From the NCBI GenBank assembly GCA_964567585.1, contig CAZMND010000002.1, forward strand, positions 7,592-71,591: 64,000 bases of DNA, written 5' to 3'. The position numbers were made by a program, and so were the translations under genes. The notes under the pieces were generated by a model. It did no database searches. It was not told where the DNA came from and saw only the letters and a list, made by a program, of their open reading frames with translations. The DNA comes from an uncultured Lachnospiraceae bacterium (lineage in GTDB: Bacteria > Bacillota > Clostridia > Lachnospirales > Lachnospiraceae). Position 1 is the stretch's first letter, and each line of letters begins with the position of its first letter. Below are positions 4,155 to 9,184 of the stretch, in pieces.

Positions 4155-5476
4155 ATGAGTACATTTGTTGAAGGTTTAGTTAATTCAAAGCTTCGTAATA
4201 TGAAGGAAATGAAAAACGTATACGAAGTCGGACACGTAACAAAAGTAAAAGATTATATTCTCGAAGTTACGGGATTGGAATCCGTAGGATTCTATGAAAG
4301 AGTTGTTATCTCCAATTATTCGGTTGGTTATGTTACAGCTATCAAGAAAAATTCAGTAATGGTAGCTGTATTACAGAGAGCAAACGTAATATATGTTGGA
4401 GATGAAGTAGTTACAACAGGTTTTGATTTCTGTGCTATGTACAGTAGAGCGTCAATTGGTCACATTATCGATATTTTCGGTAACGACAGACTATTGGATG
4501 AAAAATTTGAGAACTTAAAACCACTTAGCATTGAAACAAATCCAATTCCGATTATGGAAAGAGGTCCTGTAAAGAGACCGTTCTATACAGGTATTGCGGG
4601 TATTGATCTTGTATATCCGATTGGGTATGGACAGCGTCAGTTGATTATCGGTGATAAAAAATCCGGTAAAACACAGATTGCATTGGATACTATCGTAAAC
4701 CAGAAAGATAAGAACGTAATTTGTATTTACGTGGCAATTAATAAAACAAAGAAAAATATTAAAGAATTATACGATATGCTTATGAAAAAGGGTGCTATGG
4801 AATATACCTTGATTGTTGCATCCTTTAGTGAAGATGAACCACCGGTAGCATACTTTACACCATATATGGCGATGTCGGTTGCAGAGCTCTATATGAGAGA
4901 AGGACAGGATGTTTTGGTTATCCTCGACGATTTAAAACATCATGCCAATATCCATCGTGAAATCAGTTTGCTGACAGGAAAAATTCCGGGTCGTGATGCA
5001 TATCCGTCCGATATATTCTACACACATTCCAGATTGTTGGAAAAAGGTTGTCAGCATAAAGACGGCGGTTCCATTACGGTACTTCCGATTGTTGAAACAA
5101 AGGGTGGAGATATTACAGACTATATTTCTACAAACATTATTTCCATCACGGACGGACAGTTGGTTCTTTCCAGAAAGAACTTTGAAAAAGGCCAGAAACC
5201 GGCTATTGACTATACCTTAAGTGTATCCCGTCTGGGTGGTGCGGTACAGGATAAGGATATGAAAGCTCTTGGTGCAAAGGTACGTCAGAGATTCTTATCA
5301 TACTTAGAAACAAGAGAAGTTTATGAACTTGCAAACACAGATGAAATGAGTTTTGAAATGCAGGCGAAATTGGAAGAAGGACGAAGAATTGAAGAAAGAC
5401 TTCTTCAGTACAAATTTTCTCCAAGAAACAAAAATGAAATTATTCATATATTTGAAGAAGCATTAGAGGACGAAAA

Positions 5477-5480
<4 letters not shown>
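4155..5480 (+). CDS. F1 ATPase alpha-subunit-like protein, 441 aa (C-terminal helical domain about 55 aa shorter than canonical)
   Basis: P-loop GDKKSGKT (canonical GDRQTGKT) at 4650-4673. Also VICIYVAI, ILDDLKHHA, PGRDAYPSDIFYTHSRLLE, ISITDGQLVL and LSVSRLGGAVQ (canonical SVSRVGGAAQ, the Arg-finger region). Confidence 0.9.
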
Positions 5481-7907
<2,427 letters not shown>

Positions 7908-7918
<11 letters not shown>

Positions 7919-8438
7919 TGTTTTGGAAGCTATTATGCAATTACGTGTATTTATTCTCGTATCAGGAATTGGAATTGTTTTAAGCGGAGTATATCTTTTG
8001 TTCCGCTGCAGAAAATTTGGTTGGAACAGAAACAATATAAAACTGATAGGCTTTTTCTACAATTTAAGTGTGTGGGACACTGTTGGTATGGCCTGCGGTT
8101 TTTTGAAAATATTCCTTGTATTTTCCATTCTGATAACTACGGGAAAAGTTGAAATTATTCATATGATTATATTTTGTATACTGGAAGTCTGTTATATTGT
8201 CCACAGACGCAGTATCAAAGGAATTATGCTGGATTTAGTGCTTAGTATGGTTTCATTGATTGTAATGAATATTATGAATATGTTACACCATTATTTGAAC
8301 GAAATTGTTTATGACGTTAAAGTGGCAATTGTCGTGTGGCTGCTTGGAGTGTTACTTTGTCTCTACGGCATTTATGATTTGATGCATTGTGCCAAAACAG
8401 TGCTTGAAACTAGGAAGGAAACTGAAGCTAAAGTATGA
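7908..8438 (+). CDS. Polytopic (~5 TM) membrane protein of unknown function, translationally coupled to epsilon
   Basis: ATG at 7908 is preceded by GAGGAGGAA (7892-7900) and overlaps the epsilon stop by 11 nt. The hydrophobic segments include one with buried polar residues (GKVEIIHMIIFCILEVCYIVHRR). Confidence 0.7.
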
Positions 8439-9184
8439 ATAAAATGAATAAACCTCAAAAAGACAAAAAAAAACATATGAACAGCTTTATAAAGGAAAAC
8501 AGACAGTGGTTTATTTTACTCGGAGCAATCTTCTTGTTTTTAATCTTGATGGTTGTTATCGTATGGTATTCAGGAACGCAGAAAAACTGGAATCCGGGAG
8601 TAGAAACCTACCGATATGTTATGGGTGTGAAGGTTCCGTATTCGCAGGATATGAAGCTGATACATACAGATGCAGGAACTTTGATTGAAGATAAGGATTC
8701 TGTTTATTCGGACGGAACACCGATTTTCAGCGAAGAGGATGAACAACTTATTTTACCTGTAAGTATGGGGTTAATGCGCCCATTTCATGAGGATTCATTA
8801 AAAAGAGTTAACTATTTTGCAACCTTAAAGAAATTAGGCGATGTTATTTCAATTGATCAAAATGGCTATACAACGGAAGTTAGCGAAGGTTTTTTGTATG
8901 ATGGAGATGGCACATATATTTTCATGGAAGATATGACATTGACGATCGGTAACAGTACCTATTATGCACATTCGTTATCTTATGCCAAGGTTTTCTACAG
9001 AGATGCAGTGGAAATTTATAATATAACAACGGGTGATTATCAGTATATTGATATTTCCAATTCGGATACGGTGGCGTTATCTGCCAATGGTTACAGTATT
9101 GATTTAGGTACAGGTGTTATGACAATCGGAGATACACAAAGAATATTATTTGCAGATATTGAGGCAATGGGAGTATTACAATGA
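8435..9184 (+). CDS. Single-pass (N-in) membrane protein with ~200-aa extracytoplasmic domain, unknown function
   Basis: ATGA overlap with the upstream stop. Lys-rich N-terminus, then one TM (WFILLGAIFLFLILMVVIVWY). Confidence 0.7.
   Translation: MNKMNKPQKDKKKHMNSFIKENRQWFILLGAIFLFLILMVVIVWYSGTQKNWNPGVETYRYVMGVKVPYSQDMKLIHTDAGTLIEDKDSVYSDGTPIFSEEDEQLILPVSMGLMRPFHEDSLKRVNYFATLKKLGDVISIDQNGYTTEVSEGFLYDGDGTYIFMEDMTLTIGNSTYYAHSLSYAKVFYRDAVEIYNITTGDYQYIDISNSDTVALSANGYSIDLGTGVMTIGDTQRILFADIEAMGVLQ

Follow-up and report, generated by a model that had tools for sequence, protein, structure and literature searches.

Within a 64,000-nucleotide (nt) stretch of an uncultured Lachnospiraceae bacterium (assembly GCA_964567585.1, contig CAZMND010000002.1, positions 7,592 to 71,591 of the forward strand; hereafter the window), we find an F-type ATPase-like operon whose epsilon-like gene is followed directly by genes for two membrane proteins, one with five transmembrane (TM) helices (the 5-TM protein) and one with a single TM helix (the 1-TM protein). 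Weighing the evidence laid out below, we lean towards reading these two proteins as one membrane module, a pair of subunits, obligatory and specific to the lineage, that would form the non-rotating link between an ion-uncoupled rotary ATPase of the F type and giant surface proteins. On the best reading, the module consists of six TM helices and an outside all-beta domain of ~200 amino acids (aa). It is neither a diverged subunit a nor an ion conductor of the a/c type, and it probably links the motor to the giant cell-surface proteins.

We assessed the conservation of the two genes across 11 related loci. Some of these belong to further genera of the Lachnospiraceae or to two additional Clostridia families, others to metagenomes. 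In 11 of 11 the genes follow the order c, b/delta, alpha, gamma, beta, epsilon, 5-TM, 1-TM, which holds down to ~60% alpha identity. A search for related loci starting from the distant member P0096 yielded none. The 5-TM family is rare: of 401 Lachnospiraceae genomes sampled, 4 carry it, as do 5 of 399 from the Clostridia (these surveys are samples, such that "not found" applies to the genomes searched). The 5-TM profile and a marker for this cluster type, the b/delta-like stalk protein, match the same five Clostridia genomes (G000, which is the genome of the window, G621, G646, G651 and G767), and elsewhere in the Clostridia sample the marker gave two weak, partial matches only. Both the position after the epsilon-like gene and the co-occurrence with the ATPase genes therefore mark the pair as part of the cluster. 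The preliminary description of this region, made from the sequence alone, had named a bona fide a-subunit fold or a lack of co-conservation as observations that would speak against its proposal; our searches turned up no such fold, and the pair is co-conserved with the ATPase genes.

Further evidence for a single module comes from gene fusion. In the G651 lineage the 5-TM and 1-TM proteins are fused into one protein of 404 aa (locus L013), and a second fusion of 406 aa (P0106) was recovered from the representative library. These two are the fusions seen, and because they are 45% identical across their full length we take the fusion to be old and no assembly error. Counted by eye, the linker from TM5 to the sixth TM helix has only ~15–18 residues, so that the two helices must be neighbours. 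The fusion is also topologically consistent, since the C-in end predicted for the 5-TM protein (see below) joins the N-in end of the 1-TM protein, whose predicted topology is N-in, C-out. Together, the fusion and the strict co-occurrence fit lineage-specific membrane ("X0") partners of the F1-like head. The preliminary description had proposed just such partners acting as a stator or adaptor; the partnership is supported by the co-conservation (11 of 11 loci, 5 of ~400 genomes) and the fusion, and the stator or adaptor role is one that the module may have.

Evaluating the 5-TM protein itself, a profile search of 1.84 billion representatives yielded a family of 177 clusters at 50% identity, nearly all of 160–200 aa and matched over their full length, and the corresponding search for the 1-TM protein yielded 275 proteins; families of this size argue that neither is a chance open reading frame (ORF). 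Close relatives of the 5-TM protein number 50, the one named match being a Lachnospiraceae metagenome-assembled genome. No meaningful Pfam family was matched by the 133 family members evaluated, the 5-TM protein had no NCBIfam match at E ≤ 0.1 (NCBIfam holds no model for either protein), and a sequence profile search of PDB returned two chance-level matches only (E = 0.11 and 2.6). Topology and structure prediction, which had been suggested as a check in the preliminary description, recovered the five and one TM helices that it had anticipated. For the 176-aa protein, hydropathy and AlphaFold2 agree on five helices (residues 13–35, 55–76, 83–99, 103–132 and 137–175), with a predicted local distance difference test score (pLDDT) of 94.7 and a predicted template-modelling score of 0.87. 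Searching this model against PDB with Foldseek gave no match at E ≤ 0.001 (best E = 1.0, TM-score ≤ 0.46). Loop charges were counted over the 133-sequence family alignment and assigned to sides by the positive-inside rule: loop 1 (net charge +3.4), loop 3 (+1.3) and the C-terminal tail (K+R 4.8) would lie inside, with the net negative N-terminus and loop 4 outside, such that the predicted topology is N-out, C-in.

We then evaluated which residues of the 5-TM family are conserved. Positions conserved family-wide are G48, F50, L53, H85, L92, N112, N124, L126, Y129, E132, D136, F149, Y153 and Y156. The most conserved polar ones among them are H85, N124, Y129, E132 and D136, and in the predicted topology these five lie at the outer face, beside the exit of the partner's ectodomain. 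Three of them form a motif in the outer TM4–TM5 loop, with Y129 kept in 118 of 133 sequences, E/D132 in 87 and D/E/N136 in 99; H85 is moderately conserved (His in 53% of the 133 sequences, elsewhere mainly Tyr or Gln). The preliminary description had pointed to a hydrophobic segment with two Glu and one His followed by His-Arg-Arg as buried charges. That segment is present, but its H99, R100 and R101 are placed by the positive-inside rule at the cytoplasmic end of TM3 and in the TM3–TM4 loop, outside the bilayer core, and E93, H99 and R100 proved to be clade-specific. Within the close clade A1, W56, D57, K67, H85, H99, R100, D109, D136 and D157 are invariant and E93 nearly so; in most of the 133 family sequences position 93 is S/T/V and position 99 is L/A/I, and position 100 is Arg in 17%. 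No conserved membrane Arg was found in these 133 sequences. In some lineages low-complexity K/E/D-rich extensions of 60–190 residues occur in either protein at the cytoplasmic end, on the side of the F1-like head, as in P0061, P0090 and P0094 of the 5-TM family and P0315–P0321 of the 1-TM family; those of some 5-TM members are long C-terminal tails. Such extensions could reach the F1-like head or serve as a second stalk.

The 1-TM protein has a cytoplasmic tail rich in Lys, crosses the membrane with one helix (residues 23–48, nt 8501–8578) and carries an all-beta ectodomain of ~200 aa, in agreement with the single-pass layout and outside domain given in the preliminary description. Its AlphaFold2 model has a pLDDT of 88.1 (ectodomain ~93), and after the TM helix it shows 23 short strands over residues 58–237. 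Foldseek found no analogue of this model in PDB (best E = 0.018, TM-score ≤ 0.18) or in BFVD (TM-score ≤ 0.23), and against NCBIfam the protein gave a sub-threshold CrgA match only. Positions invariant in the family include G64, Y69, P96, D156–G157, Y183, Y188 and E193. Family matches of ~400–420 aa were considered as extra fusions and rejected, their added length being K/E-rich cytoplasmic N-terminal extensions of ~190 aa.

We also evaluated the operon for subunit a and for its partner site on the c-ring. PF00119 has no match in the window, and its sole match in the genome is on another contig (C68, locus L001), which encodes a canonical a subunit with the motif LSLRLFANV. An a-subunit hidden Markov model (HMM) run at maximum sensitivity (--max, six frames) over the window and the 11 loci reached a best E of 0.3, with positive controls at 1e-100; the absence of subunit a from the operon, which the preliminary description had asserted, thus stands. 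Pfam ATP-synt_A was matched neither by the window protein (E ≤ 1) nor by the 133 family members (E ≤ 0.01). Profile comparison with subunit a, another check named in the preliminary description, showed no relationship: hhalign of the 133-sequence 5-TM alignment against 30 a subunits gave 0.5–1.8% probability, and the positive control, the c-like protein against canonical c, gave 98.3%. Among the best 50 Foldseek matches of the 5-TM model listed for PDB there was no a-subunit chain. Of the hallmarks of subunit a (profile, an invariant membrane Arg of the LRLFGN type, the tilted H5–H6 hairpin fold), none was found in the 5-TM protein. On the ring side, neither Asp nor Glu occurs in helix 2 of the c-like protein, as inspected in the window and seven related loci, and the c-like family profile lacks the canonical Glu, hhalign placing other residues at the carboxylate position. 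An Arg of the a type would therefore have nothing to act on. The suggestion in the preliminary description that buried charges might replace functions normally split between a and c is thus not supported: E93, H99 and R100 are unconserved, there is no conserved membrane Arg, and the c-like protein has no carboxylate.

The genomes that carry the cluster point in the same direction. PF00119 is absent genome-wide from three Clostridia carriers (G621, G646 and G767), which are 100%-complete genomes of 1.4 Mb. Since these carriers have no subunit a anywhere, the complex works without one and cannot borrow one. In G621 (locus L016) and G767 (locus L014), the alpha and beta of the cluster are the only strong ATP-synt_ab matches, and this ion-blind motor seems to be their only rotary ATPase. 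One additional weak ATP-synt_ab match (about 1e-28) is probably a FliI-type ATPase, and G646 has a V/A-type pair in addition to the cluster. In the genome of the window, the contig carrying the canonical atp operon ends right after subunit a. A genome of the same genus (G028, locus L019) has a complete canonical set of atpI, a, c (Glu present), b and delta, with a Q...ET motif around the Glu of its c subunit that we take to be of the Na+ type.

Evolutionary rates were assessed as identities to the window counterparts at ~60% alpha identity. The c-like (62%) and beta (63%) proteins are the most similar, followed by gamma (46%), with much lower values for the b/delta-like (25%), epsilon-like (22–29%), 5-TM (20–24%) and 1-TM (26–34%) proteins. 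Judged from these identities, the module evolves as the stalk and epsilon proteins do and unlike a core that catalyses or conducts ions, which fits structural or adaptor subunits rather than an ion path.

These observations were weighed against several other explanations. An extremely diverged subunit a, with an ion path via H85, E93 and R100, might be suspected from the five TM helices that the 5-TM protein has in common with subunit a, from the polar TM3 residues of the window's clade, and from its being the sole polytopic membrane protein of the operon. We regard this explanation as effectively refuted, with scarcely any chance left to it: Negative results came from Pfam, from the custom HMM, from hhalign and from Foldseek (the last among the best 50 matches listed for a pLDDT-94.7 model) where the positive control worked, E93, H99 and R100 are unconserved in the family, R100 and R101 belong to a loop on the cytoplasmic side, and no carboxylate is present in the c-like ring. 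It is also very unlikely, in our judgement, that the 5-TM protein helps to assemble the unusual c-ring in the manner of AtpI/UncI (PF03899) and stands outside the finished complex. The 5-TM protein is a small polytopic protein of an atp-like operon, and small size and weak conservation are features of AtpI-type proteins too. However, when compared by hhalign with an alignment of 17 AtpI sequences taken from related genomes, it gave 1.0% probability, such that an AtpI-like chaperone identity was rejected, neither the window protein (E ≤ 1) nor the 133 family members (E ≤ 0.01) matched ATP-synt_I, AtpR or ATPase_gene1, and a stable fusion with a protein bearing a 200-aa ectodomain ill suits a transient chaperone.

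The remaining explanations concern where the module sits. It might belong to the surface side only, anchoring, inserting or organising the giant proteins with no contact to the ATPase, so that the linkage reflects nothing beyond a shared operon. The layout of the 1-TM protein (basic tail, TM helix, beta-rich juxtamembrane domain) is common to the Gly-rich (GGX) protein and the giant proteins of the operon, and the 5-TM and 1-TM proteins evolve at about the speed of the surface proteins. Several points weigh against the subunit pair that we favour: co-occurrence cannot separate a subunit of the ATPase from a part of a surface-protein apparatus in the same operon, the 1-TM gene is the last of the operon at two loci (L049 and L053), where the giant gene lies upstream instead, and hhalign of the 1-TM ectodomain against the GGX and giant juxtamembrane domains gave 13–20% probability, a value that establishes no particular tie to the surface proteins. 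We nevertheless consider a surface-only role unlikely, because the pair always lies directly after epsilon, often translationally coupled, whereas the giant genes vary between loci in number and position, and because homology of the ectodomain to the giant and GGX juxtamembrane domains is not detectable (BLASTP found no similarity between them). Alternatively, the six-helix bundle might sit in, or be fixed to, the c-ring as a rotor-attached shaft, turning the ectodomain outside the cell and thereby working the giant surface proteins. A c-ring without ion sites needs another load for its rotation, the models show the module as a compact helical bundle with an outside domain, and the fusion shows the sixth helix packing beside that bundle. 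There is also a precedent in V-ATPases, where Ac45/ATP6AP1, ATP6AP2 and yeast Voa1 are single-pass proteins with an extracytoplasmic domain whose helices lie inside the c-ring. We hold this arrangement to be distinctly improbable, as nothing locates the module inside the ring, a bundle of six helices may not fit the ring, and a stator membrane partner would then be missing, unless the b/delta-like, GGX and giant proteins, each with its single TM helix, are counted.

In the non-rotating arrangement that we prefer, the module and the TM helix of the b/delta-like stalk would both adjoin the carboxylate-free c-ring, and the module would stand in the place of subunit a as the stationary membrane partner of ring and stalk. 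ATP-driven movement of the gamma/epsilon/c-ring rotor may in this way be passed to the cell surface via the module's ectodomain, which would touch the operon's giant surface proteins, themselves anchored in the membrane.

Comparing the module with known systems, we begin with the canonical F1Fo subunit a (AtpB). The 5-TM protein resembles it in having about five TM helices, in its operon with c, b/delta, alpha, gamma, beta and epsilon, and as the presumed membrane neighbour of c-ring and stalk. It departs from subunit a in lacking sequence, profile or fold similarity and any conserved membrane Arg, in the place of its gene (after epsilon, versus before c for canonical a), in evolving much faster than the catalytic subunits, and in being paired or fused with an ectodomain protein. 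The accessory proteins of V-ATPases resemble the 1-TM protein as single-pass proteins with an extracytoplasmic domain, a likeness of architecture alone for which no homology is expected; V-ATPases, unlike the window cluster, keep an ion-conducting a subunit. In N-ATPase operons (atpDCQRBEFAG), the genes of the small membrane proteins AtpQ and AtpR come next after that of epsilon, so that there too two membrane proteins follow epsilon in an unusual F-type operon. N-ATPases, in contrast to the window cluster, keep subunit a and an ion-binding c, and the models PF09527 and PF12966 had no match in the window protein (E ≤ 1) or in the 133 family members (E ≤ 0.01).

By analogy, the closest concept is that of the mycoplasma Type 2 and Type 3 F1-like X0 ATPases (the M. 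mobile G1-ATPase and the MIB-MIP-linked type), which have no c or b homologue and whose X0 portion is made up of a protein with 12 TM helices, a small protein of the cytoplasm and a large one that carries a signal peptide and, at its C-terminus, two TM helices (PMC3369863, PMC12994834). The likenesses are F1-like alpha, beta, gamma and epsilon without subunit a, lineage-specific membrane proteins of no known fold (a polytopic one and another whose outside domain is large), an association with surface proteins, and the proposal that force is passed through the membrane at the expense of ATP. The window cluster differs in its c-like ring, its b/delta-like stalk and its walled host, and its membrane partners, with five TM helices and one N-terminal TM helix, are set apart from those of mycoplasmas by the published descriptions and by the NCBIfam models. 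The alpha and beta of the window also score below every NCBIfam cut-off (atpA/atpD, N-ATPase, MMOB1660/1670 and MSC_0619/0618), beta reaching 448 against atpD where the cut-off is 463, which suggests a separate F-type lineage. Outside mollicutes, the "symbiotic" non-respiratory F-type ATPase loci of Omnitrophota lie beside type-4a pili (Seymour et al. 2023, PMC10066038). They are alike in being non-respiratory F-type ATPases beside surface machinery in genomes rich in giant ORFs, and unlike in belonging to a different phylum, in their link to pili, and in that no such membrane partners are described in the portion concerned (PMC10066038). A literature search found no description of the Clostridia cluster or of the 5-TM and 1-TM proteins.

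The 11 same-strand genes at the start of the window form one operon, whose features are collected below.

Table 1. Features of the ATPase-like operon; positions are counted from the first nucleotide of the window.
Feature	Positions	Strand	Remarks
Truncated surface protein	ends 1457	+	First gene of the operon
Gly-rich (GGX) single-TM protein, 527 aa	1472–3055	+	Upstream of the c-like gene
c-like proteolipid, 81 aa	3073–3318	+	Pfam ATP-synt_C, E = 1.4e-8
b/delta-like single-TM stalk protein, 269 aa	3343–4152	+	Marker for the cluster type
alpha-like gene	4155–5480	+	Pfam match
gamma-like gene	5477–6259	+	Pfam match
beta-like gene	6268–7635	+	Pfam match
epsilon-like gene, 99 aa	7619–7918	+	Translationally coupled to the 5-TM gene
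Shine-Dalgarno sequence GAGGAGGAA	7892–7900	+	Within the 3' end of the epsilon-like gene; read from the sequence
5-TM protein, 176 aa	7908–8438	+	Homologues, AlphaFold2 model, loop charges
Segment GKVEIIHMIIFCILEVCYIVHRR, residues 79–101	8142–8210	+	Outer TM2–TM3 loop, TM3, start of cytoplasmic loop
Outer TM4–TM5 loop, motif Y129-x2-E132-x3-D136	8292–8321	+	Family alignment; loop net negative
1-TM protein, 249 aa	8435–9184	+	Homologues, AlphaFold2 model
Giant surface protein, 3476 aa	9181–19611	+	Last of the 11 operon genes

Start and stop overlaps indicate that the last genes of the operon are translationally coupled. The epsilon-like gene stops at TAG 7916–7918 and so overlaps the 5-TM gene by 11 nt, with a spacer of 7 nt between GAGGAGGAA and the ATG at 7908; the 5-TM ORF stops at TGA 8436–8438 and the 1-TM gene begins with the ATG at 8435 (an ATGA overlap), an arrangement repeated where the end of the 1-TM ORF meets the ATG (9181) of the giant gene. 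The 5-TM start within the epsilon stop region and the ATGA overlap that follows are both as first described. The ORF listing also offers an alternative 5-TM frame reaching back to 7809 (209 aa), and we place the start at 7908 because the 50 close homologues are 171–179 aa long and begin with MLDS. Pfam confirmed c, alpha, gamma and beta across the operon and found nothing for the 5-TM or 1-TM protein at E ≤ 1. The epsilon-like gene, kept in 11 of 11 related loci, gives weak matches to NCBIfam epsilon equivalogs (residues 3–87, E = 0.04–0.1); only the N-terminal beta-sandwich part is matched, and the C-terminal regulatory helices seem to be missing.

Beyond the conserved core, the c-like gene is preceded by the GGX gene in the window and at 9 further loci, and loci L002, L003, L013, L017, L018 and L052 have a giant gene downstream. 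A Pro-rich ORF of 82 aa on the minus strand (2179–2427) mirrors the (GGX)n repeat of the 527-aa protein and is almost certainly not a gene. At locus L053, a Joint Genome Institute (JGI) metagenome contig, the beta-like gene (7649–9023) is split into ORFs of 84 aa and 368 aa, the result of a frameshift, of decay to a pseudogene or of faulty assembly.

Current understanding treats rotary F-type ATPases as ion machines that draw torque from the a/c interface, and here a c-ring-containing F-type complex possesses neither an ion site nor a subunit a. New in this complex is the 5-TM protein, its sole polytopic partner, paired or fused with an ectodomain protein. To what was known of the module we add family sizes, strict co-occurrence, the fusion, a topology, confident models without known folds, controlled negative tests for subunit a, and carrier genomes without any subunit a, such that the 5-TM and 1-TM families now represent small, confidently modelled targets in gut Clostridia. 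Should the module turn with the ring as a shaft, a walled Gram-positive bacterium would have an ATP-powered rotary transmission from inside to outside that uses no ion gradient. If the rotor does work against the module, or turns it, the cluster would show how a rotary motor has exchanged the transport of ions for mechanical work on the surface of the cell, a question that also concerns the ATPases of mycoplasma gliding and of the MIB-MIP system.

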